DNA from: a virus
DNA: 20,402 nucleotides
Reading direction: 5' to 3' (one strand)
Virus genome (UHGV): UHGV-0113240
Position 1 is the first letter of the stretch. Every line of letters begins with the position of its first letter. Of this stretch, positions 50 through 19,369 are shown one piece after another. Both the position numbers and the translations under genes were made by a program. The notes under the pieces are model-generated. The model saw nothing but the letters and a program-made list of their open reading frames with translations. It made no database searches and had not been told where the DNA came from.

Positions 50-319
<270 letters not shown>

Positions 320-3932: not shown

Positions 3933-4709
3933 CTACTCACCTCCTTTGATGCGAATGCCAGCGGCGCGCTCGGCTTCACTTTGTTCCCAAAACCACTTGT
4001 GAAGCGCCATAAGCTTTTCGTCAATCGGTGCATATTTGCGATTAAAGTAGGCCTGAGCATCTTTCTCAGATTCGTCCGGCAATTCGCCTGGGCCAAACAG
4101 TGTGTTATAAATCCATGCCAGTCCGCTCTTAGCGTCGCCAGTTGCCTGCCATTCGATAATGGCAGCCTGCATGACCAGAATGTTTTTCCCGATTAATAGG
4201 TCCAGTTCTTTGTACCGGTTGCGGATGTATGCATTCTCGCTTTGTAATTTTGCGTTGCGCTTTTCTGAGGCTTCAAGTAACGCCTGCTTATCGCGTAGCG
4301 CTTCTTCCAGTTCAGCAACATGGCATTCACTATCAATAAGGTTGTTCTCTGCTGCTTCCAGCTCAACACGCAGCTTCCCTACCGTTAACGCCATCTCCTC
4401 GTTCTCCTGGTCGCGGCGTTTGATGTATTGCTGGTTTCTTTCCAGCTCATCCAGCAGCGCCAAGACGGTAGCAGGATTGGCTGCGGCGATGAATTCAGCA
4501 TTGGCCTGCTGTTCCATTTGGAAATCTTCATCGAAACCGCTTTCTGGATGCGCTCCTTCAATTCTGCAAATAGGAATATATCCAGCAACTTCACGATGAA
4601 TTAGCGCATCATCACCATCAAATCGGCTCTCTCCATATTCGAGCGACCACTCACCACACGTTGCTTTTTCTGCCGCCTCACGCAGTGCCTGATAATTAAT
4701 TTCGCTCAC
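3933..4709 (-). CDS. Ead/Ea22-like protein
   Basis: 258-aa ORF with N-terminal MSEINYQALREAAEKATCGEW... and a central coiled-coil-like segment, as in lambdoid ead/Ea22-family proteins; lies in the b2/ea region between xis and exo. Confidence 0.6.
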   Translation of the reverse strand: MSEINYQALREAAEKATCGEWSLEYGESRFDGDDALIHREVAGYIPICRIEGAHPESGFDEDFQMEQQANAEFIAAANPATVLALLDELERNQQYIKRRDQENEEMALTVGKLRVELEAAENNLIDSECHVAELEEALRDKQALLEASEKRNAKLQSENAYIRNRYKELDLLIGKNILVMQAAIIEWQATGDAKSGLAWIYNTLFGPGELPDESEKDAQAYFNRKYAPIDEKLMALHKWFWEQSEAERAAGIRIKGGE

Positions 4710-5241: not shown

Positions 5242-5321
5242 TGAACAAGTCCCATGTCGGCAAGCATAAGCACACAGAATATGAAGCCCGCTGCCAGAAA
5301 AATGCATTCAGTGGTTGTCAT
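5238..5321 (-). CDS. 27-aa hydrophobic peptide (MTTTECIFLAAGFIFCVLMLADMGLVQ), not in the ORF track
   Basis: ATG 5321..5319 overlaps the TGA of the upstream ORF and its TGA overlaps the ATG of the downstream ORF (two ATGA junctions); 16-residue hydrophobic core. Confidence 0.35.
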   Translation of the reverse strand: MTTTECIFLAAGFIFCVLMLADMGLVQ

Positions 5322-5509
5322 ACCTGGTCTCTCTCATCTGCTTCTGCTTTCGCCACCATCATTTCCAGCTTTTGTGAAAGGGATGTGGCTAACGTATGAA
5401 ATTCTTCATCTGTTTCTACTGGTATTGGCACAAACCTGACTCCAATTTGAGCAAGGCTATGTGCCATCTCAATACTCGTTCTTAACTTAACAGGAGATGC
5501 TTTGTGCAT
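5318..5509 (-). CDS. lambda orf63-like small protein
   Basis: 63-aa ORF; position between exo and ea22 matches lambda orf63; recalled similarity. Confidence 0.5.
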   Translation of the reverse strand: MHKASPVKLRTSIEMAHSLAQIGVRFVPIPVETDEEFHTLATSLSQKLEMMVAKAEADERDQV

Positions 5510-5670
5510 ATCGCCTCCCGTTTATTATTCATCTCCTCAGCCAGCCGCTGTGCTTTCAGGGGATTTCGGATAACAGAAAGACCGGGAAATACCCAGCCTC
5601 GCTTTGTAACGGAGTAGACGAAAGTGATTGCGCCCACCCGGATATTATCGTGAGGATGCTTCATCGCCAT
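5482..5670 (-). CDS. lambda orf60a-like / DUF1317-like small protein
   Basis: 62-aa ORF immediately upstream of exo, overlapping exo's start region as in lambda. Confidence 0.5.
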
Positions 5671-6341
5671 TGCTCCCCAAATACAAAACCAATTTCAGCC
5701 AGTGCCTCGTCCATTCTTTCGATGAACTCCGGCACCATCTCGTCAAAACTCGCTATGTACTTTTCATCCCGCTCAACCACGACATAATGCAGTCCTTCAC
5801 GCTTCATACGCGGGTCATAGTTGGCAAAGTACCAGGCATCTTTTCGTGTCACCCACATGCTGTACTGCACCTGGGCCATGTAAGCCGACTTTATGGCCTC
5901 GAAACCACCGAGCCGGAACTTCATGAAATCCCGGGAGGTAAACGGGCATTTCAGCTCAAGGCCATTGCCGTCACTGCATAAACCATCGGGAGAGCAGGCG
6001 GTGCGCATACTTTCGTCGCGATAGATGATCGGGGATTCAGTAACATTCACGCCGGAAGTGAACTCAAACAGGGTTCTGGCGTCGTTCTCGTACTGTTTTC
6101 CCCAGGCCAGTGCTTTAGCGTTAACTTCCGGAGCCACACCGGTGCAAACCTCGGCAAGCAGGGTGTGGAAGTAGGACATTTTCATGTCAGGCCACTTCTT
6201 TCCGGAGCGGGGTTTTGCTATCACGTTGTGAACTTCTGAAGCGGTGATGACGCCGAGCCGTAATTTGTGCCACGCATCATCCCCCTGTTCGACAGCTCTC
6301 ACGTCGATCCCGGTACGCTGCAGTATAATGTCCGGTGTCAT
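5661..6341 (-). CDS. exo: lambda exonuclease (Red-alpha)
   Basis: 226-aa protein recalled as near-identical to phage lambda Exo ([38 protein letters not shown]...). Confidence 0.95.
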
Positions 6342-7123
6342 GCTGCCACCTTCTGCTCAGTGGCTTTCTGTTTCAGGAATCCAAGAGCTTTTACTGCTTC
6401 GGCCTGTGTCAGTTCTGACGATGCGCGAATGTCGCGGCGAAATATCTGGGAACAGAGCGGTAATAAGTCGTCATCCCATGTTTTATCCAGGGCGATCAGC
6501 AGAGTGTTAATCTCCTGCATGGTTTCATCGTTAACCGGAGTGATGTCGCGTTCCGGCTGACGTTCTGCAGTGTATGCGGTATTTTCGACAATGCGCTCGG
6601 CTTCATCCTTGTCATAGATACCAGCAAATCCGAAGGCCAGACGGGCACACTGAATCATGGCTTTATGCCGTAACATCCGTTTGGGATGCGACTGCCACGG
6701 CCCCGTGATTTCTCTGCCTTCACGGGTTTTGAATGGTTCGCGGCGGCATTCATCCATCCACTCGGTAACGCAGATCGGATGATTGCGGTCTTTGCGGTAA
6801 ATCCTGCATGTACATGATTCATTGTCCTGCTCAAAGTCCATGCCATCAAACTGCTGGTTTTCATTGATGATGCGGGACCAGCCATCAACGCCCACCACCG
6901 GAACGATGCCGTTCTGCTTATCAGGGAAGGCGTAAATTTCTTTCGTCCACGGATTAAGGCCGTACTGGTTGGCGACGATCAACAATGCGATGAACTGCGC
7001 ATCGCTGGCATCACCTTTAAATGCCGTCTGGCGAAGAGTGGTGATCAGTTCCTGTGGGTCGACAGAATCCATGCCGACACGTTCAGCCAGCTTCCCAGCC
7101 AGCGTTGCGAGTGCTGTACTCAT
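6338..7123 (-). CDS. bet: recombination protein Bet (Red-beta single-strand annealing protein)
   Basis: 261-aa protein recalled as near-identical to lambda Bet; stop overlaps the exo start. Confidence 0.95.
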
Positions 7124-7479: not shown

Positions 7480-7791
7480 TTAGGAAAACAGGAAAGGGGG
7501 GTAGTGATTCAGGCCGTTACCGCGTCCGTCGAGAAAAACTTCCACGAGCAAATCACGGGTATAAGTGCGCTCGATGCCGCGATGCAGATAAAGCCGTCCG
7601 CGTAAATTAGCTGATGCAGTCCAGGTACCATCTTTGTGTTTGACCAGCATTCCTGGCATGACCGCGCCGCGATTAACGGTCTGCGTTCCGTAATGTTGAT
7701 GAACCATAAAAACTCCTGCCCGTAAGCTGGGCTGCTGAACATATAGAGACTTCTGCGCGTATTCAGGCGGTGGATGGCCGCCGGTTGTCAT
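7480..7791 (-). CDS. hypothetical protein in the kil/cIII position (start uncertain)
   Basis: 103-aa ORF, the only ORF between the OL-like operators and gam; GAGG upstream of ATG 7791; no arginine-rich N-terminus, so not an obvious N homolog. Confidence 0.35.
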
Positions 7792-7984
7792 AACTAAGCC
7801 GCCTCGTTGAAGCGACTAAGGTATGAAATGTTGAGTTGATTTCAGCTGGTCACACCGACGTTCACGCGTCCGTTTCACCCCTCGCACTCCCCGGAGCCTG
7901 CTGAAATTCAAGCTGCGGATCTAAGCGGTCATCGCAACGGTGAATCAGGTGGTTGCCGTATCGTTGTGTTGTTGCGACATGGTG

Positions 7985-8035
7985 ATAATAGCTATTGCTA
8001 TTGGTGATATCAATACTTATTGCTATTGTTAGATG
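7985..8035 (-). promoter_or_regulatory. OL-like operator cluster / presumed leftward early promoter
   Basis: Repeated ATTGCTATTG motifs and a TATTGgtgatatCAATA palindrome; the same TTGCTATTG motif recurs in the cI-cro intergenic region. Confidence 0.45.
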
Positions 8036-8149
8036 TGTTTTGATATTAAATGTTTGATAGCAAAAAGAATTAATTTTGTGACTTGCATCGCATAGCGATA
8101 ACTGAAGGGAGGTTGTGGTGGTTTTTTGAACGGTTTGTGTGATGAGGGG

Positions 8150-8178
8150 AGGGCAAAAGAAAACCCGGCAAGGCCGGG
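8150..8178 (-). terminator. intrinsic terminator ending the cI-kinase-DUF3037 transcription unit (tIMM analog)
   Basis: CCCGGC-AAG-GCCGGG hairpin followed on the minus strand by TTTTCTTTT, 36 nt after the stop of the 8214..9041 gene. Confidence 0.6.
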
Positions 8179-8213
8179 TTGTTGATAAGGTATGTCACAT
8201 ACAATAATAAATT

Positions 8214-9041
8214 TTAGACTTGAGGAAGTATTTTTTTTGCAAAATCAATAGTTTCTTTGTGGCTGGATGCAGGTATATGATTTATTTTCTTAGCATCCAT
8301 AGTTCTCTTTATGATGTCAATAACTTTGCTTTGGCCTGAGTTTGGTGATTCAGGGGTTTCAATTGTGAATAGAATGTCATCAAGTGAAAGCAGGTTTTCT
8401 TCTGCTGCTCGAGTTATTCTCATCACCCAAGTATCACTATGCTCCATCATTTTTCCGGGTTCAGTTTGAGTGAATGCCAGAGGTTTGATGGCACATTGGA
8501 TCCTGTCGTGCTTCTTGGCGACCAATGGCATTGAGAACTTTGCGAAATACCCATCAATAGTTGCTTGTTTGAAGACGTTCTTCAATCCATCTATTCTATC
8601 GATACTGCGTTTTAGCTCTCTAGCTAGGACATCTTCACGGCGCTCTTTTGTGTAGTCAGCGTGGTTTACATATTTATTGTAAATGCGAGCCAACTCTTCT
8701 TTCGGGTTTTCACTGAGGATAACTCTCGTAGAGCTGAACTGAAAAATTGATTCTTTTTTGTTTGTAAAATATCTGAAGAATTGTGCAAGTTGTTGATGTC
8801 CAACAATCTGGGTAGCATGCATTTTTGCGAACTGGAGTTCTCTTTGTATTGAGTCTTTTGCTACGGGAAAAATGCAATCATCATGGAAGAAATTCTTTAC
8901 ACGAGAGTCATTTCGCTTTGTGAGCTGGAAGTCAAAGTAATTTTCTTTTGGCGCGCACAGAAGTACGCCTATGTTTGCGAACTCTTCAGTCTCCGCATAA
9001 GGCGCATAGCGAACGATGCTATATAGGCATGGAGTTGTCAT
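8214..9041 (-). CDS. DUF3037-like protein (start at ATG 9041, overlapping the upstream TGA)
   Basis: 275-aa ORF; N-terminal CLYSIVRYAPYAETEEFANIGVLL resembles the conserved N-terminal motif recalled for DUF3037; ATGA overlap with the kinase-like gene. Confidence 0.55.
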   Translation of the reverse strand: MTTPCLYSIVRYAPYAETEEFANIGVLLCAPKENYFDFQLTKRNDSRVKNFFHDDCIFPVAKDSIQRELQFAKMHATQIVGHQQLAQFFRYFTNKKESIFQFSSTRVILSENPKEELARIYNKYVNHADYTKERREDVLARELKRSIDRIDGLKNVFKQATIDGYFAKFSMPLVAKKHDRIQCAIKPLAFTQTEPGKMMEHSDTWVMRITRAAEENLLSLDDILFTIETPESPNSGQSKVIDIIKRTMDAKKINHIPASSHKETIDFAKKILPQV

Positions 9042-9790
9042 TCTATTGCGCTCCAAAATTCATCACAATCACCTTTGCCTAGCGTAGTGCAGACAAAAGG
9101 TAAAAACTCATCATCTACTATCCACTCCTCTGGAATTTCGTCAAGGATAGCAGGAAGTTTGTGTAAACTGTCAACGACCCTCTGGCGGTACTCTACGCGA
9201 TCCACTAAATCATACTGCCATTTGCGGTTACCCGGGCCGTACACGTGTACAGAAAAATCTTCAGGCCCAGCATTCTGATCAAATGATAGATTATGGTCAA
9301 TCAGATAATACTTATCGTTACTGATGTCATAAAGGATATTGACGTTTCCGCCTTTATCAGTAAGCGTTCTGTCTGCATTTAATATCCACTTATCAAAAGC
9401 ATAGATTAATTTTTGCTGTTCGACTGGGATGATCATTTCGTTTCTTGACTGCGTAAACGTTAACGCGATTGCACCGTCTATGAACAATGAAGCAAAAGCA
9501 TACCCTGTACAAATTTGTTGCTGCAGATCAGGTGTGTACTCTACAAGTTCCTCTGGTACAAATACGATTTTAAAGTCAGGTAAAGGAAGGCCGATATCAT
9601 TAGCCAGGCACGCCGAAATGAACTCAGCTAAGAGATTTTTCGGGGGCATTGATGGTTTAGATTTCAAAACATACAACTGCCCATCATCACATTTGCAAAG
9701 AAATGGCTGAGTGGAACCTTCATTGATGCGACGTATTACTTCAACGACATTAGGTATTGCACTACTGCTGCTTGCTTCGCGCTCCATCAC
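9038..9790 (-). CDS. atypical HipA / PI-kinase-like kinase-domain protein
   Basis: 250-aa ORF with LYVLK (candidate beta3 Lys), WILNADRTLTDKGGNVNIL (DRxxxxxxN-type catalytic loop) and YYLIDHNLSFD (DFG-like) motifs; directly downstream of cI. Confidence 0.5.
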   Translation of the reverse strand: MMEREASSSSAIPNVVEVIRRINEGSTQPFLCKCDDGQLYVLKSKPSMPPKNLLAEFISACLANDIGLPLPDFKIVFVPEELVEYTPDLQQQICTGYAFASLFIDGAIALTFTQSRNEMIIPVEQQKLIYAFDKWILNADRTLTDKGGNVNILYDISNDKYYLIDHNLSFDQNAGPEDFSVHVYGPGNRKWQYDLVDRVEYRQRVVDSLHKLPAILDEIPEEWIVDDEFLPFVCTTLGKGDCDEFWSAIE

Positions 9791-9925
9791 TAACCCTTAC
9801 GTGATTCAAGTCTTCCACCTCATTACTCCGCATCTCAAAGAGCGGTTCTACACAGCGTGTTTAAAGAAAAACAACAGGCTTCATTGCTGTAGCTGTTTTT
9901 CCGTAATGTCACTTTTGGTCTCGTT

Positions 9926-10618
9926 TTAACCATGCTTCCTGTACGTCTGAGGCATGCTCCCGATGACCTTACCGAAGATGAATACACGGTTCATCTCGTC
10001 TTTCTCGATTGGGTCCCATGGTGAATAGCTCTTGTTGTCAGAGATAACCAGCAGCTTATCCTTCATCATTTGAAGGCGCTTAACATGGGCCGTATCGTCG
10101 TAAAGGAACGCATAAATCCCGTCGCCGTCGAAAGATTTGATGGCGATATCGACGAACAGCAAGTCACCCGGTTCGATCGTTCCTGACATGCTGTCACCGC
10201 GTACGTTAATGATGCGGATATTTTCTGCCTTCCTGCCATCGAACATGTGACGAGCATCGTCAAACGAGTACTCAACAGAGCGCAGGACTTCTACAAACTC
10301 ACGGTTGATGACACCCGGCCCAGCACTGACTTCTATATCAAGAACGTCAATCTTGAAGTATTTGGAATGGTTGACAGTAGGCTTCCCTGATTGTTGACCG
10401 TCATTTCTCATCGGGCCTATGCCTGATGAGAGCCACTCTGTTCGAACACCCAATGCATTAGCTATTTCAACAATTTTTGTTGAGCCGCGCGCGTTGCCGC
10501 TTGTCAGTCTCCAGATTGTGGGTTGAGCTACGCCAGACGCCTTTGCAAGAGCGCCTTGAGACATTCCAGATTGTTCCATCGCTAGGTTTAAGCGATCAGC
10601 AAGAGTTTCTTTTTTCAT
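9926..10618 (-). CDS. cI: CI-type prophage repressor (HTH + S24 LexA-like autopeptidase domain)
   Basis: N-terminal HTH (SQGALAKASGVAQPTIWRL), C-terminal GDSMSGT Ser and KRL Lys of the S24 dyad; divergent from cro; start taken at ATG 10618 (tracked ORF starts at TTG 10654). Confidence 0.85.
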   Translation of the reverse strand: MKKETLADRLNLAMEQSGMSQGALAKASGVAQPTIWRLTSGNARGSTKIVEIANALGVRTEWLSSGIGPMRNDGQQSGKPTVNHSKYFKIDVLDIEVSAGPGVINREFVEVLRSVEYSFDDARHMFDGRKAENIRIINVRGDSMSGTIEPGDLLFVDIAIKSFDGDGIYAFLYDDTAHVKRLQMMKDKLLVISDNKSYSPWDPIEKDEMNRVFIFGKVIGSMPQTYRKHG

Positions 10619-10725
10619 AAGTTTTAATTTATACGCTTGCGTATTGATGGTCAAAACACGTTTTGCTATTGCTATGGTTAATACGCATTGCTATTATTTG
10701 TTTGTTGCAATACCAATAGGAATTA
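10619..10725. promoter_or_regulatory. OR-like operator region with divergent promoters
   Basis: 107-bp cI-cro intergenic region containing TTGCTATTGCTATGG, ATTGCTATTATT, CAATACCAATAGG and the palindrome ATACGCttGCGTAT. Confidence 0.5.
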
Positions 10726-10956
10726 ATGATGACAAATCAAACCATTCAACTCGCAATCAGTATTACAGGTAGTCAAAAACGACTGGCAGATCTATGCGGT
10801 GTAGCCCAGCCCACTGTTTGGCGTTGGCTACACGGTGGCGGAATTGATGCCCGCTATGTAATGAAAATTGTCTCAGCCACTGGTGGAAAGATTAAGCCAG
10901 CAGATATTCGTCCCGACCTCGCACCATTGTTTAACGCGAGTAATTCTGCCGCCTAA
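10726..10956 (+). CDS. cro: Cro-like HTH repressor
   Basis: 76-aa ORF divergent from cI; HTH QKRLADLCGVAQPTVWRW. Confidence 0.8.
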   Translation: MMTNQTIQLAISITGSQKRLADLCGVAQPTVWRWLHGGGIDARYVMKIVSATGGKIKPADIRPDLAPLFNASNSAA

Positions 10957-10980
10957 TCTGCGGCGTTAACTGATAAGGCA

Positions 10981-11526
10981 ATGATTATGCAACCACTTAC
11001 ATACCAACAGACTAGCGGATTTAGCCCGACTGCGGTGATAAATCGTTCTCAAACAAAACAAGCTCCAGGCCACGAAAAAATCCGTGATGCCGTCCGCGCC
11101 TGGTCGGCTGTAGATAATCAGGATGTCGTTGCCGCACTCATTGTGAATGAGTATCGGGAGCAGGGCGGCGGCACCATCGATTTCCCTGATGATGTCAGCC
11201 GTGCACGCCAGAAGCTGTTCCGCTTCCTCGATAACAAATTCGATTCTGAAAAATACCGAAATAACGTGCGTGAACTGACCCCGGCAATTCTGGCGGTACT
11301 ACCGCTGGAATATCGCGGTTACCTGGTTGAGCAGGATAGCTTCATGGCTAGGTTGGCTGAAATGGAAAAGGAACTCAGTGAGGCAAAACAGGCTGTCATT
11401 CTCAACGCACCACGCCACCAGAAACTGAAGGAAATTAGTGAAGGTATTGTGTCGATGTTTCGTGTGGACCCAGATCTGGCTGGTCCATTGATGGCGATGG
11501 TTACTACCATGCTGGGGGCGATATGA
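10981..11526 (+). CDS. YdaT/CII-like regulatory protein
   Basis: 181-aa ORF in the cII position between cro and O; recalled resemblance to Rac YdaT-family proteins (NEYREQGGG segment). Confidence 0.45.
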   Translation: MIMQPLTYQQTSGFSPTAVINRSQTKQAPGHEKIRDAVRAWSAVDNQDVVAALIVNEYREQGGGTIDFPDDVSRARQKLFRFLDNKFDSEKYRNNVRELTPAILAVLPLEYRGYLVEQDSFMARLAEMEKELSEAKQAVILNAPRHQKLKEISEGIVSMFRVDPDLAGPLMAMVTTMLGAI

Positions 11527-13228: not shown

Positions 13229-13530
13229 GCAAGGGTATGACGGGCAAAGAGGCAATTATTCATTACCTGGGGACTCATAAGAAATTCTGTGCGCAGGACG
13301 TTGCCGCGGTAACAGGCGCAACGGTAACCAGCATAAATCAGGCTGCGGCTAAAATGGCGCGGGCAGGAATCCTGGTCGTTGATGGTAAGGTCTGGCGAAC
13401 GGTGTATTATCGGTTCGCTACCAGAGAAGAACGGGAAGGAAAGGTGAGCACGAATTTGATTTTTAAGGAGTGTCGCCAGAGTGCCGCGATGAAGCGGGTG
13501 TTGGCGGTATATGGGAGGACTACAGCATAA
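13225..13530 (+). CDS. ren: Ren protein (start may be the internal ATG at 13237)
   Basis: Sequence MTGKEAIIHYLGTH...VTGATVTSINQAAAKMARAG...VYYRFATREEREGK matches lambda Ren; immediately follows P. Confidence 0.85.
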   Translation: MSKGMTGKEAIIHYLGTHKKFCAQDVAAVTGATVTSINQAAAKMARAGILVVDGKVWRTVYYRFATREEREGKVSTNLIFKECRQSAAMKRVLAVYGRTTA

Positions 13531-14007
13531 GCATAACTTATGGATTATATGGAAAACTGGTAATTATGCTCTTTTCTTATGAAAATAAAGAGAAGTTTTC
13601 GCTGGCGTTTTATTTCTTCTGTTTTTTCTTGCGGGTTATTCTGATTTGTTTTGATTTGATTTTTTCTGACAAAAGTAGGGAAAAAATATGTCGCAAGTAC
13701 TTTCTGTCTTTACCTCCTAAATTACATTCTCTATCAAATGTTGCCATAGTTATGACCCCAGTTTTATATAGTGTTTCAGCAATTTTTCTGTAGTTTTTTT
13801 CTCGCAAAATTGAAGAGTTTTTCTTTGCTGTATTTTCAAGGCTATCTCCTTGTGGTTTAAGACTATTTGGGCCAAAAAACGTTGTGGATACTGCTGCACT
13901 TGTTGTCCGTTTTTTTTGGCCCATTTGGATAGTACTTGGGAGAGGCATGATTTTAATACGCATATAAATAACTCCTCTATCAATTGGATTTTGGGAAAAT
14001 GTTAACA

Positions 14008-14325
14008 TTAATCATGATTAAGGAGTAATTTTAAATCTTCCAATAAAATTTGTTTAAACTCTTGTGTTCTATGATCGATATACAACGCAAGTTTGCTTGC
14101 ATTATCTTCCAGGTCACGTATCTCTCTGTCACCTCGAATAAACCCAACTAAATTTAAACGTTTAGATAGTTCAGAACTTCCTTCTATGGCATCTTGGAGT
14201 ATTTGAATGATTTCTGAATTCATTGAGCGCCCGTTTCGTTTGGCTCGTTCAGCTATAGCTTCACGCATCCCATCAGGGAAACGGAGGTTAAACTTATCGT
14301 AGTCTTTTACTTGTTTGTCAGCCAT
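14008..14325 (-). CDS. Mnt/Arc-family ribbon-helix-helix repressor (start at ATG 14325)
   Basis: 105-aa ORF MADKQVKDYDKFNLRFPDGMREAIAERAKRNGRSMNSEIIQILQDAI with an RHH N-terminus; GGGGG SD; divergent from a second RHH gene. Confidence 0.6.
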   Translation of the reverse strand: MADKQVKDYDKFNLRFPDGMREAIAERAKRNGRSMNSEIIQILQDAIEGSSELSKRLNLVGFIRGDREIRDLEDNASKLALYIDHRTQEFKQILLEDLKLLLNHD

Positions 14326-14345
14326 TGAACCCCCCAAAAAAATGA

Positions 14346-14401
14346 ATGGTGCCATATTGCCACATCAATTCAATGGTGGCATTATGGCCTCATGGTGTCA
14401 T
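14346..14401. promoter_or_regulatory. candidate operator: three direct repeats of ATGGTGNCAT between the divergent RHH genes
   Basis: ATGGTGCCAT (14346), ATGGTGGCAT (14373), ATGGTGTCAT (14392) at 27- and 19-bp spacing. Confidence 0.4.
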
Positions 14402-14424
14402 TGTGGCCTCATGAGGTTATGTCA

Positions 14425-14583
14425 ATGGAAAAGAAAGAGGTAAAAATTACCCTTCGCTATCCGCAAAAAGTGAAGGATGAATTCAAGCGAATTGCTCAGG
14501 AGGAAGGGATGTCTGAGAACGCAGCTATTGTTCAGGCGCTTGTATGGGCATTGAAATTTAGAACACGGATACATGCTCGCTAG
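14425..14583 (+). CDS. Arc-like ribbon-helix-helix repressor (52 aa; start at ATG 14425)
   Basis: MEKKEVKITLRYPQKVKDEFKRIAQEEGMSENAAIVQALV has the RHH pattern and P22 Arc-like size; GAGG 8 nt upstream; directly precedes an antirepressor-like gene. Confidence 0.55.
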   Translation: MEKKEVKITLRYPQKVKDEFKRIAQEEGMSENAAIVQALVWALKFRTRIHAR

Positions 14584-14653
14584 AAACAGCGAAGCCCCAC
14601 TGGCGGCAACCTTAGGGGCTTCTATCGAAAATAACCGCGAAGGAAATATCGAC

Positions 14654-15322
14654 ATGAGTATTGTAGCAACATCAGATCTGAACTTCCAAGGTGAAGCACT
14701 AGTGCCAGTGGCAAATATTGCCGGAATATGGCTAACTTCATCCAACCTAGCAAGAGCACTGAAGTATTCGAATAGTCGCGCAGTCACGATGATTTACAAC
14801 AAATATGCTGACGAATTTTCCAGTAGTATGACTAGAGTGCTTGAAGTCAGTACCTTAGAGAATGATGTCGAGGTACTTGATCTGAGTACCTCGAAAAGTA
14901 CTCGAAACTTGAAGAAGAAAGTACGCGTTTTCTCTCTCCGCGGAGCCCATTTGATCGCCATGTTCGCCCGCACTCCTGTAGCCAAAGAGTTCCGCCGTTG
15001 GGTTCTGGATATTCTCGATCGAGAAGTTCAACAATCCCCAATCATAAAACAATTCACTGATAACGAACTTTGCACACTTGCTTGGTTGTGGCGAGCTGGG
15101 GATGCGATGTTAACCGCCTGCCAGAACGTTACTCCTCTTCTTCAGGTTGCGGAGCATCGTGAAGCTGGTCGCTTCACTTCTATCGAGCAAGAATATCCCC
15201 AGATACTCAATAAGGCACAGGCAATCCTTGCCAGAGAAACGGCACATGTAAAATTCCGGCCGTGGCAGGATGATAAGTGGAGTCGAGTTTTGCCGCATTT
15301 ACGTTCGGATCGATTACAGTAG
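14654..15322 (+). CDS. Bro-N domain antirepressor-like protein (start at ATG 14654 after AAGGAA)
   Basis: RVFSLRGAHLIAMFARTPVAKEFRRWVLDIL matches the conserved Bro-N/antirepressor N-domain signature; follows the arc-like gene as in P22 immI. Confidence 0.6.
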   Translation: MSIVATSDLNFQGEALVPVANIAGIWLTSSNLARALKYSNSRAVTMIYNKYADEFSSSMTRVLEVSTLENDVEVLDLSTSKSTRNLKKKVRVFSLRGAHLIAMFARTPVAKEFRRWVLDILDREVQQSPIIKQFTDNELCTLAWLWRAGDAMLTACQNVTPLLQVAEHREAGRFTSIEQEYPQILNKAQAILARETAHVKFRPWQDDKWSRVLPHLRSDRLQ

Positions 15323-17595: not shown

Positions 17596-17732
17596 TGTTT
17601 GAGTTTTATATGGCAGAACTTCTTCGCCACCGCTGGGGGCGTCTGCGCTTATATCGTTTCCCCGGTTCTGTTTTGACCGATTACCGGATACTGAAGAATT
17701 ACGCCAAAACACTGAAAGGAGCTGCCGCATGA
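17592..17732 (+). CDS. ylcG: YlcG-like small protein (not in ORF track, 46 aa)
   Basis: [46 protein letters not shown]; ATGA overlaps with rusA stop and with the next gene's start. Confidence 0.6.
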
Positions 17733-18418
17733 ATACCCAATATTTACAGTATGTCCGCGAGCAACTCATTGTGGCTACTGCTGATTTGGGCGGAGCAACG
17801 AAAGGCCAGCTTGAAGCCTGGCTGGAGCATGCACAATTTGATACTGGTACATATAAACGAAAGAAGCCGCGCATTATGGATGAGGTAACGGGCAAGATGA
17901 TTACGCTGGATAATCCGCCGATTTCCGGTAAGCAGTCGTACGCAAAAGGTTCATCCATTGCACTGGTCAGCCAGGTTGAGTTCTCAACATCTTCATGGCG
18001 CCGCGCGGTTCTGTCTCTCGAAGAACATCAGAAAGCGTGGTTGCTGTGGAGTTACAGCGAAAGTGTTCGCTGGGAACATCAGGTCACCATAACGCAGTGG
18101 GTATGGAGCGAGTTTAAGACTCTGTTGGGTACCAGGAAAATTGCAGGTAAGACACTGGAACGTTTGAAGAAGTTGATCTGGCTGGCGGCACAGGATGTGA
18201 AGAACGAGCTGGCAGGGCGTAAGACCTATGAATACCAGGAGCTGGCATTACTGGCGGGAGTGACAACTAAAAACTGGTCCAAAACATTTACTCGTCACTG
18301 GGTTGCAATGAAACACATTTTTCACCGACTGGATAGTGAGGCTTTATTGTTTGTAATGAGAACACGTTCAAAACAAAAGGTGGCATTTTCAAAGCAAAGT
18401 GTTGCAAAAGTAGATTGA
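17729..18418 (+). CDS. late-gene antiterminator Q-like protein
   Basis: 229-aa ORF in the canonical Q position: after rusA/ylcG and immediately before a promoter-like stretch plus strong intrinsic terminator (pR'-tR' arrangement); family assignment by position, not sequence. Confidence 0.55.
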   Translation: MNTQYLQYVREQLIVATADLGGATKGQLEAWLEHAQFDTGTYKRKKPRIMDEVTGKMITLDNPPISGKQSYAKGSSIALVSQVEFSTSSWRRAVLSLEEHQKAWLLWSYSESVRWEHQVTITQWVWSEFKTLLGTRKIAGKTLERLKKLIWLAAQDVKNELAGRKTYEYQELALLAGVTTKNWSKTFTRHWVAMKHIFHRLDSEALLFVMRTRSKQKVAFSKQSVAKVD

Positions 18419-18628: not shown

Positions 18629-18704
18629 GGCCCTTTAGCTCAGTGGTGAGAGCGAGCGACTCATAATCGCCAGGTCGCTGGTTCAAATCCAGCAAGGGCC
18701 ACCA
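18629..18704 (+). tRNA. ileZ: tRNA-Ile2 (anticodon CAU, lysidine type; could alternatively read as Met)
   Basis: 76-nt cloverleaf: acceptor GGCCCTT/AAGGGCC, anticodon loop CUCAUAA, T-loop GGTTCAAATCC, 3' ACCA; recalled close match to E. coli ileX-type tRNA. Confidence 0.8.
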
Positions 18705-18713
18705 TATCACATA

Positions 18714-18790
18714 CCGCCATTAGCTCATCGTGACAGAGCGCCAGCCTTCGAAGCTGGCTGCGCGGGGTTCAAGTCCCCGATGGCGGTCCA
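18714..18790 (+). tRNA. argN: tRNA-Arg (anticodon UCG)
   Basis: Acceptor CCGCCAT/ATGGCGG, anticodon stem CCAGC/GCTGG with loop CUUCGAA, T-arm CGGGG-TTCAAGT-CCCCG, 3' TCCA. Confidence 0.75.
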
Positions 18791-18803
18791 TTATCGGTAT
18801 TCT

Positions 18804-18880
18804 GCGTTGTTAGCTCAGCCGGACAGAACAATTGCCTTCTAAGCAATCGGTCACTGGTTCGAATCCAGTACAACGCGCCA
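18804..18880 (+). tRNA. argO: tRNA-Arg (anticodon UCU)
   Basis: Acceptor GCGTTGT/ACAACGC, anticodon stem ATTGC/GCAAT with loop CUUCUAA, T-loop GGTTCGAATCC, 3' GCCA. Confidence 0.8.
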
Positions 18881-19169
18881 CACCACACTTATCTGCCCTG
18901 ACTCTCTTTTGCGGGCTTTTTATTACAGGAAAGACACCGGACAGTGAAATGTTAAATGCCTCACAATTCAGGCAGTTGACTGTTGCCTGACATGCTGAGC
19001 GTTTGTTAAAAAAATCCTGCATGATGAATCCCCCTGAGCGGCGGGGCATAATGACAGATGTTTGGTTGCGTATTGTATAGGCAAGTTGCGGATTCTGTCT
19101 GGTCATTGCAGAATTCACCGGGAGGCACCCGGCATCATGCATCTGGTGAATTAAATGTGCATACGTAAT

Positions 19170-19194
19170 GCCCCTCTTCGGAGGGGCTTTTTTT
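19170..19194 (+). terminator. strong intrinsic terminator
   Basis: GCCCCTC-ttcg-GAGGGGC hairpin followed by TTTTTTT. Confidence 0.75.
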
Positions 19195-19369
19195 CGGAAA
19201 AAGCACGCAATGGGCGTGCATTAGCATGAGATATTGAGGCTTTAAATTTTTTCGTGCGGGTTTTAACCCGGTTTCATGAGGCTGCGCAACTGCGTGGCCT
19301 TTTTTGTTTTTCTGGCTGCTGAAAGTGGCAGTCACAGTCCTTCATATCACCCGTGACCGGGGAGGAACA

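Follow-up and report, generated by a model that had tools for sequence, protein, structure and literature searches.

Organisation of the locus

The cassette occupies positions 8150 to 9925 of the window, by which we mean the whole analysed stretch of 20,402 nt from the virus genome UHGV-0113240. Two minus-strand genes are present in it, appearing as 9038..9790(-) and 8214..9056(-) in the list of open reading frames. The first gene, hipA (9038..9787(-)), encodes a 249-aa HipA_2-family Ser/Thr-type kinase, the putative toxin and effector. The second gene, hipD (8214..9041(-)), starts with an ATG at 9041 and encodes a 275-aa partner, the putative antitoxin; the stop codon is counted in both intervals. 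Because RefSeq and the published protein DS-6A use the ATG, and because a Shine-Dalgarno sequence AAGGG lies at 9798..9794, the ATG at 9787 is likelier to be the start of hipA than the GTG at 9790. The intergenic spacer between cI and hipA (9788..9925(-)) thus measures 138 nt from the ATG and 135 nt from the GTG. As read from the sequence, the TGA stop codon of hipA and the ATG start codon of hipD share bases in an ATGA overlap (9038..9041(-)), which suggests translational coupling. The original prediction, made from the raw sequence, had described two minus-strand genes downstream of cI behind a 135-bp gap, the same ATGA overlap, and proteins of 250 and 275 aa. These genes, the gap (as counted from the GTG), the overlap and the second length were all confirmed, and only the length of the first protein had to be corrected to 249 aa. 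The block had also been judged more AT-rich than its flanks, and the measured GC content of 8150..9925 was 0.41; for comparison, exo-bet-gam-kil had 0.52 and the O/P genes had 0.51. A GC content as low was seen in just 2% of the stretches of this length.

The gene before hipA is a cI-type repressor gene (9926..10654(-); Peptidase_S24, E=1e-17, together with HTH_3 and Phage_CI_repr in Pfam). On the left, the immunity region is bounded by OL/pL (7985..8028(-)), where two operator repeats overlap a promoter-like site (TTGATA-17-TATTAT, 10/12 matches), and on the right by OR (10655..10764), with operator repeats in the cI/cro interval. The operator motif AATANNNATTGCTATT lies at 7987-8002 and 8012-8027 in OL, and at 10655, 10680, 10709(-) and 10749(-) in OR. 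It had 8 matches versus 0.7 expected, confined to OL/pL and OR, and therefore the block is in the position of lambda rexAB, between OL/pL and cI, as had been proposed. OL/pL is the one stretch in which the sequence departs from that of the hetero-immune phage PhiR5_1.

The presumed cI-hipA-hipD unit is closed by an intrinsic terminator at 8152..8180(-). The stem (8180..8162(-)) has 8 pairs, 6 of them G-C, with a 3-nt loop, and is followed by UUUCUUUU as far as approximately 8152. Folded in context, it reached -15.6 kcal/mol (z=-2.4); it is kept in PhiR5_1, where the loop has a 3-nt insertion. A hairpin plus U-run terminator had been placed at 8150..8178, so that the element itself stands and its coordinates move. 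In the spacer at 9788..9925, a consensus scan revealed no promoter-like or terminator-like site, and the fold contained just a weak A/U-rich hairpin and was overall no better than shuffles (z=-1.2); a promoter or terminator of its own in the spacer was rejected on these results. The spacer matches that of PhiR5_1 except for a 14-nt indel directly past the cI stop, and Rfam gave no match within or near the cassette. As the spacer shows neither a terminator nor a recognisable promoter, and hipD is followed by a strong terminator, we infer, solely from the signals missing in the spacer, that hipAD would be transcribed with cI.

The cassette was found in 284 of 5,426 complete E. coli genomes (~5%), and every copy was in the cI-pL slot. 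The sole 100% match of the cassette was in isolate F467, where the prophage around it has another left arm, and the best coverage of the window at a single place by any complete E. coli genome was at most 58%. In related prophages the cargo of the slot is swapped, and SIR2, MqsA with SecB, SocA, ASCH, PP2C with a kinase, and HipAD were all found there, in agreement with the earlier view of the slot as a moron hotspot. The cassette is moron cargo of a lambdoid prophage, placed in its immunity region at the rexAB position. In lambda, the position of rexAB, its co-expression with the repressor and its role in exclusion are established. The cassette is like RexAB in its cI-to-OL/pL position, its strand, its presumed co-expression with the repressor in the lysogen and its expected exclusion function. 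However, the two have no sequence or domain kinship, since RexAB consists of a sensor and a membrane ion channel and has no kinase. Rex families were absent among the Pfam, PHROGs and PADLOC matches of both proteins. Membership in RexAB was rejected, the position alone counting as common to both. The prophage kinase Stk of 933W and the cargo made up of a PP2C phosphatase and a Ser/Thr kinase also place a kinase beside a lambdoid repressor gene, but these kinases have a eukaryote-like Pkinase fold instead of HipA_2 and come without a DUF3037 partner.

The HipA kinase and its HipD partner

HipA matched the Pfam family HipA_2 (PF20613) with E=2.3e-76; this was its sole Pfam match at E<=1, and HipA_C, HipA_N and Couple_hipA were not matched. 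The kinase motifs singled out in the original prediction (LYVLK, NADRTLTDKGGNVN and LIDHNLSFD) were all found in HipA, and they hold the family-invariant residues K42, N137, D139, N148, N150 and D164-H165-N166. D139 lies within 'NADR' and is invariant across 46 homologues. Judged by these residues, the catalytic core of this compact kinase is complete, with K42, D139 in the loop 'NADR', N148/N150, and D164 in 'IDHN'. The structure model of HipA (pLDDT 89, pTM 0.89) matched PI4KII-alpha, CtkA, HipA and HipT, and its best solved neighbours were PI4KII-alpha and CtkA; the TMq was 0.60-0.63 for PI4KII-alpha, and HipA followed behind both with 0.40-0.48. The profile-HMM search and the structure prediction that had been proposed as checks of the kinase fold both confirm a kinase, and the HipA_2 match and the likeness of the model to PI4KII-alpha and HipA bear out the type suggested (HipA/PI3-4-kinase). 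PI4KII-alpha is a lipid kinase, and HipA, HipT and CtkA are protein kinases. Because the best neighbours are PI4KII-alpha and CtkA and not HipA, the proposal that the substrate is a protein of translation is made by analogy. In RefSeq the kinase is labelled 'HipA family kinase'. For both HipA and HipD, the PDB sequence search gave no meaningful match, NCBIfam contained no family, and PHROGs yielded matches only to the unknown-function families phrog_3162 and phrog_5137.

Residues 7-125 of HipD are a DUF3037 domain (PF11236, E=7.7e-24), as had been suspected for its N-terminus. Residues ~132-275 are an alpha/beta domain with a loose likeness to restriction endonucleases, for which the PD-(D/E)xK core is alpha-beta-beta-beta-alpha-beta. 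The Foldseek search of HipD against the PDB gave nothing at E<=1e-3, and Pfam gave no HTH match. The presumed equivalents of the PD-(D/E)xK carboxylates, placed on the strands by topology and not by residue-level superposition, are P172-[L/F]173 and A184-I185-K186 in 69/69 homologues, with the Lys alone being kept. HipD as an active PD-(D/E)xK nuclease was rejected on the absence of the canonical acidic residues in all of these homologues. Because a nuclease-like domain is present without them, the C-terminal domain of HipD is more likely to bind nucleic acid or to serve as a sensor than to be a cutting enzyme. As a side observation, DUF1829 was detected by HMMER in 0/69 homologues and not in the window protein; its sole support in HipD is a published HHpred probability of 0.78 and a weak fold similarity.

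Relation to HipAD/DS-6 and other systems

HipA is identical to DS-6A (WP_000389051.1) at 239 of 249 residues (96%), with D139 conserved, and HipD is identical to DS-6B (WP_000210934.1) at 272 of 275 residues (99%). Each of the 10 and 3 substitutions, respectively, is at a non-conserved position. The HipA and HipD proteins of PhiR5_1 (GenBank PV340545.1) match DS-6A and DS-6B at 100% identity; their annotations read "HipA toxin" and "HipD antitoxin", and their genes lie in the kil-cI slot. The cassette and that of PhiR5_1 agree in gene order, protein lengths (249/275 aa), ATGA overlap, terminator, kil/pL-cI location and catalytic D139, with a DNA identity of 95.6%. They differ in that the host prophages are hetero-immune, with different cI N-terminal domains and operators. 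As in the gene pair by which HipAD/DS-6 is recognised, a HipA_2 gene (PF20613) is directly followed by a DUF3037 gene (PF11236) with a 4-nt overlap.

DS-6 is one of the DefensePredictor systems (DeWeirdt et al., Science 2026, PMC13092281), and that paper credits Brenes & Laub (Cell Host Microbe 2025) with its new name, HipAD. With the pair carried on a low-copy plasmid (PMC13092281), wild-type DS-6 lowered the Bas1 titer 10^3.9 and 10^5.2, and the D139A mutation abolished the protection, with a drop of 10^0.9 (PMC13092281 supplement). The interface between DS-6A and DS-6B was predicted by AlphaFold3 with an ipTM of 0.76-0.79, and a toxin-antitoxin/abortive model was put forward as the authors' hypothesis (PMC13092281). 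From the sequence comparison, we consider it highly probable that HipAD (DS-6; PDC-M66), a toxin-antitoxin-type anti-phage system, is present here as an intact allele. Because the pair has already been named, tested and annotated in GenBank, this is not a new system. The original prediction erred in treating the pair as one without a name, since it is known as HipAD, DS-6 and PDC-M66 and is annotated in PV340545.1. Its proposal of a repressor-linked, kinase-based exclusion or toxin-like module is supported, among other results by a 96%/99%-identical allele that defends and needs the kinase Asp (PMC13092281).

The discovery value is small, as HipAD is published, named, in GenBank and carried by ~5% of complete E. 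coli genomes. What the locus offers is a defence system correctly recognised from raw sequence at the first stage of reading, a clean natural HipAD variant with 13 substitutions in a hetero-immune prophage, and documented cargo swapping at the cI-pL slot of this backbone.

In PADLOC-DB v2.0.0, PDC-M66A (E=4.7e-15) and PDC-M66B (E=4.2e-16) matched the adjacent genes, the former over residues 16-171 of HipA only and the latter over the full length of B. The matches are moderate, so that distant homologues were evidently used to build the models. Both models match the pair, and PDC-M66 is a candidate put forward by computation and does not count as validated. A HipA-like gene with a DUF3037 gene, which has been equated with PDC-M66 (PMC12548924), is found beside Retron-Sda1, where the pair is a stand-alone defence against Bas51 (PLoS Biol 2025, PMC12548924). 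Deletion of HipA there abolished defence, and deletion of DUF3037 was toxic (PMC12548924); this fits the kinase being the toxin and HipD its neutraliser. The two pairs were compared by domains and have the domain pair in common, but the Sda1 pair belongs to another host and lies within a type III-A1 retron locus. The neighbourhood survey that had been suggested showed that the overlapping pair is kept in 4/4 distant homologues (Pseudomonas, Idiomarina, Sphingomonas and Yersinia), with a 4-nt overlap in each. The Yersinia pair lies in a P4-like satellite, and the Idiomarina pair lies beside AAA/SMC-HNH genes.

Canonical HipBA and HipBST likewise join a growth-arresting kinase toxin of the HipA superfamily to a protein neutraliser in the same operon, and the kinase fold is related. 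However, the cassette lacks both a HipB-type HTH antitoxin and HipS, and its partner lies downstream instead of upstream. Its HipA_2 kinase is short, with 249 aa, whereas canonical HipA has ~440 aa with N-terminal domains and HipA_C. Upstream of hipA lies the gene for the 242-aa cI repressor, which carries an S24 peptidase domain, and not one for HipB (HTH_3/XRE), the antitoxin that in HipBA represses the operon as well. Membership in canonical HipBA was rejected on the missing upstream HipB, the short kinase and the TMq to HipA given above.

Proposed mechanism and alternatives

In the lysogen, hipAD would be transcribed with cI from pRM (and pRE), and HipD would bind the kinase and keep it inactive. 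Infection by another phage would free or activate the kinase, which might then phosphorylate an essential host factor. This factor would most likely belong to the translation apparatus, by analogy with HipA and HipT, whose targets are GltX and TrpS, respectively. Growth would be arrested, and the infection would abort.

A different action of the kinase has to be weighed, in which it does not poison the host but phosphorylates a phage protein, or a lipid or nucleotide, and blocks replication without cell death. The lead of PI4KII-alpha and CtkA over HipA among the solved folds points in this direction, and 933W Stk and the PP2C plus Ser/Thr kinase cargo show that kinase-based exclusion takes several forms. 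However, the TM-score lead of PI4KII may just reflect the shared absence of the extra N-terminal domains of HipA, and the enzymes HipA, HipT and CtkA phosphorylate proteins. The loss of the partner is toxic in the Sda1 homologue (PMC12548924), and therefore the kinase can harm uninfected cells; we regard this alternative as quite unlikely. The roles might also be reversed, with the kinase as a regulator and HipD as the effector, whose C-terminal domain, after phosphorylation or release by the kinase, would cleave nucleic acid of the phage or of the host. Against this reversal, DUF3037 deletion was toxic and not harmless, and kinase deletion ended defence (PMC12548924). The expected carboxylate positions are L/F173 and A184 in every HipD homologue, and neither Foldseek at E<=1e-3 nor the HMMER search for DUF1829 gave any match; the reversal is hardly credible.

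HipA-family kinases are the classic persistence toxins. The cassette could thus serve addiction or persistence, stabilising the prophage or imposing a HipA-style dormancy, with plasmid-borne defence a side effect that is inoperative at native expression in the lysogen. The toxin-antitoxin-like layout and the toxicity of DUF3037 loss in the homologue (PMC12548924) agree with such a module, as does the low DefensePredictor log-odds of the kinase gene alone (0.38, versus 6.4 for DS-6B; PMC13092281). But the pair is found in recognised defence hotspots, namely the cI-pL slot, the Yersinia P4-like satellite and the Idiomarina AAA/SMC-HNH neighbourhood, and we believe this explanation to be very improbable.

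We tentatively add a combined reading, rather unlikely as a whole, in which HipD goes beyond a passive antitoxin and is the phage sensor, the kinase is held by a hairpin and released on binding, and hipAD is read through from cI. The C-terminal domain of HipD, as a restriction-endonuclease-like fold without its former catalytic carboxylates but with invariant E136, K186, H201 and W205, would bind a nucleic-acid structure or protein made by the phage. Binding would free the kinase from the invariant DUF3037 hairpin (Y7-R11-P14-E17-T18-E19-E20-F21-A22-N23-G25), and this N-terminal hairpin could act as a pseudosubstrate. Read-through from cI into hipAD would make the strength of defence track the expression of the repressor.

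Identity of the gene pair with HipAD

The two minus-strand genes of the block 8150-9925, hipA (kinase) and hipD (partner), are an already named and already validated system, known as HipAD, DS-6 or PDC-M66. The PADLOC-DB models PDC-M66A and PDC-M66B matched the kinase (E = 5e-15) and the partner (E = 4e-16), respectively. A retron study reported a strong association of DUF3037 genes with HipA-like ones, a pair labelled PDC-M66 by PADLOC (PMC12548924). The pair adjacent to Retron-Sda1 in that study behaves as toxin and neutraliser: deletion of the kinase abolished defence against the phage Bas51, deletion of the DUF3037 gene was toxic, and the retron parts were dispensable (PMC12548924).

DefensePredictor validated DS-6, in which a HipA-related kinase (DS-6A) is paired with a DUF3037 + DUF1829 protein (DS-6B), with a predicted interface between them (ipTM 0.76-0.79) and a proposed HipAB-like toxin-antitoxin, possibly abortive, mechanism (PMC13092281). 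According to the same paper, DS-6 was independently discovered by the same laboratory and renamed HipAD in Brenes & Laub 2025. Its supplement lists the DS-6 sequences together with raw titers. The window proteins are identical to DS-6A at 239/249 residues and to DS-6B at 272/275, and none of the 13 differences affects an invariant column. Defence by this near-identical allele is kinase-dependent: it is lost in the catalytic mutant (PMC13092281), and the titer of phage Bas1 falls 10^3.9 and 10^5.2 with wild-type DS-6 vs 10^0.9 with the kinase mutant D139A (PMC13092281 supplement). In the Escherichia phage PhiR5_1 (PV340545.1), two proteins encoded between Kil and cI match DS-6A and DS-6B at 100% identity and are annotated as "HipA toxin" and "HipD antitoxin". 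The original prediction of a kinase-based exclusion or toxin-like function was right.

Gene layout, protein models and proposed mechanism

In the ORF list, hipA spans 9038..9790 and hipD spans 8214..9056, both on the minus strand. The two genes appear to be translationally coupled; as read from the sequence, the hipA stop TGA and the hipD start ATG overlap in the tetranucleotide ATGA (9038..9041), and translation from ATG 9041 gives a HipD of 275 aa. The kinase has 249 aa, not 250, because the mechanically called GTG (9790) is immediately followed by ATG 9787, which RefSeq and the published protein use as start and which has AAGGG 6 nt upstream. Upstream of hipA lies the gene of a cI-type repressor (9926..10654; 242 aa, HTH and Peptidase_S24 domains). 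Downstream of hipD, a G+C-rich hairpin of 8 pairs (8180..8162, minus strand) followed by UUUCUUUU was the sole terminator-like site found by scanning the minus strand within 7700..11000, and its folding beats that of shuffled sequence (z = -2.4). The GC content of 8150..9925 is 0.41 vs 0.52 in exo-bet-gam-kil and 0.51 in the replication genes; only 2% of same-length windows are equally low. All that had been described from sequence holds, except the kinase start and the terminator coordinates, which are revised here.

The HipA kinase core is intact. The match of the kinase to Pfam HipA_2 (PF20613) spans the full protein (E = 2.3e-76), with no match to the Pfam HipA_C and HipA N-terminal families. 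In an alignment of 46 homologues, K42 (in LYVLK), N137, D139 and R140 (in NADR), G147, N148, N150, and I163, D164, H165 and N166 (in LIDHN) were invariant. The AlphaFold2 model was confident (pLDDT 89, pTM 0.89). Its closest solved fold was PI4KII-alpha (E = 3e-6, TMq 0.60-0.63), and Helicobacter CtkA, Shewanella and E. coli HipA, and Legionella HipT were the other top neighbours. The label "HipA/PI3-4-kinase type" was apt.

Residues 7-125 of HipD matched DUF3037 (E = 7.7e-24). The HipD model had a pLDDT of 91 and a pTM of 0.56, values that indicate two domains. Foldseek gave no match at E<=1e-3, and its weak list was rich in nucleases; HMMER detected DUF1829 in 0/69 HipD homologues. In 69/69 sequences, the positions expected for catalytic carboxylates read P172-[L/F]173 and A184-I185-K186. 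The C-terminal domain is therefore tentatively read as a probable restriction-endonuclease-like fold that is catalytically degenerate. The residue-level indication that this nuclease-like domain lacks catalytic acids is a modest addition to the literature consulted.

We propose that hipAD would be expressed with cI in the lysogen and that HipD would sequester HipA. Infection would free the kinase. HipA is known to act on GltX, and HipT on TrpS; by analogy, the freed kinase may phosphorylate an essential host factor, and the resulting growth arrest would abort the infection. Three other explanations were weighed: HipAD may be purely an addiction or persistence module, HipD may be a nuclease effector, or the kinase may directly target phage components or substrates other than proteins. 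These three are less probable, given the published phenotypes and the lack of the carboxylates in HipD.

Position in the immunity region and distribution

The 16-nt motif AATANNNATTGCTATT, searched in the window with <=2 mismatches, occurred 8 times vs 0.7 expected and was confined to two clusters. One (7987-8027) overlaps a minus-strand promoter-like site, TTGATA-17-TATTAT (8013..7985, 10/12 consensus matches), and the other (10655-10764) lies between cI and cro. These clusters are OL/pL and OR, so the cassette is part of the immunity region and occupies the rexAB position, with pL on one side and cI on the other. Homology to PhiR5_1 is continuous from the 3' part of cI over both genes and the terminator, is interrupted only at the operators, a pattern that hetero-immune phages should show, and picks up again in the pL leader and kil. 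Scanning of the 138-nt cI-hipA spacer found no promoter-like or terminator-like site, and its fold was unremarkable; the simplest expectation is thus that transcription from pRM would read through into hipAD.

The presumed pL and kil are separated by a leader of ~190 nt (7792-7990, minus strand) that lacks an N-like ORF. PhiR5_1 and some 16 further viable lambdoid phages, among them the PhiR series, 4A7, Lambda_4C10 and Perceval, have an almost identical leader; blastn did not find it in HK022, and it had no Rfam match. It may encode an antitermination element made of RNA (put-like) or something else.

The cassette was present in 284/5,426 complete E. coli genomes, always chromosomal and in one copy per genome, under the RefSeq names "HipA family kinase" and "DUF3037 domain-containing protein". 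A 3.35-kb query extended into the kil and cI flanks was matched over >=80% of its length by these 284 genomes again, so the location is constant. Full-length HipD homologues also occur in Pseudomonas, Idiomarina, Marinobacterium and sphingomonads, and in 4/4 distant cases examined the gene directly upstream encodes a HipA_2 protein and again overlaps by 4 nt. These pairs lie at a chromosomal site (Pseudomonas), near AAA/KAP-NTPase and SMC/AAA_15 + HNH genes (Idiomarina), in an integrase island (Sphingomonas) and in a P4-like satellite (Yersinia). The operator-defined placement, its constancy over 284 genomes and the overlap conserved across classes are modest additions to the literature consulted. 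The Yersinia enterocolitica HipA_2/DUF3037 pair (locus 5264-6819, 54% identical) lies at the end of the satellite (Phage_ASH, D5/Toprim primase) beside an IS110 transposase, a position that agrees with the known P4 defence hotspot.

The slot between cI and kil/gam is a cargo hotspot. Prophages sharing these flanks carry an MqsA-family antitoxin with SecB, a SocA-domain antitoxin, BamE, ASCH with or without an acetyltransferase, a SIR2 protein (O157:H7), a PP2C phosphatase with a Ser/Thr kinase, or an empty slot. The sister phages PhiR70_1 and PhiR30_1 have two or three hypothetical genes there.

Other loci in the window

A second low-GC block (13500-15322, GC 0.34-0.39) resembles a P22 immI-type module. 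It contains an Arc-like ribbon-helix-helix gene (14011..14355, minus; PF03869, E = 6e-20), a small divergent Arc-like gene (14392..14580, plus) and, next, a Bro-N + P22_AR_C antirepressor gene (14573..15319, plus); a 132-aa ORF (13613..14008, minus) had no Pfam or PADLOC match. In related prophages the position is taken by "SNIPE associated domain", DUF4041 or ybcK recombinase genes, so that the block may be a further hotspot for cargo. The cII position (10981-11523) is occupied by a gene for a YdaT_toxin-domain protein (PF06254, E = 9e-30); in PhiR5_1 the protein encoded there is annotated as cII.

Genes for tRNA-Met, tRNA-Arg(TCG) and tRNA-Arg(TCT), followed by the sRNA STnc100 (155 bits), lie at 18629-19199, downstream of a 229-aa ORF (17729..18418) that we take, from position only, to be a putative Q-type antiterminator. 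Late regions of Stx-type and related lambdoid phages typically have this layout. A 467-aa ORF in 50-1922, presumably integrase-like, runs on the plus strand, whereas the early-left operon is on the other strand. Next to this ORF is the gene of an 86-aa cysteine-rich, ferredoxin-like protein (50..310, minus) that we assume to be YfhL-like. The sole 100% match to the cassette was E. coli F467, where the left arm is different, with intD at tRNA-Arg. The largest coverage of the window by any complete E. coli genome was 58%, so the prophage is a mosaic absent from that collection. In a 258-aa Ea22-like protein (3936-4709, minus), residues 146-249 strongly matched the PADLOC "DpdH" model (E = 6e-37), which unexpectedly connects an early-left gene of a lambdoid prophage with the model of a Dpd-system component.
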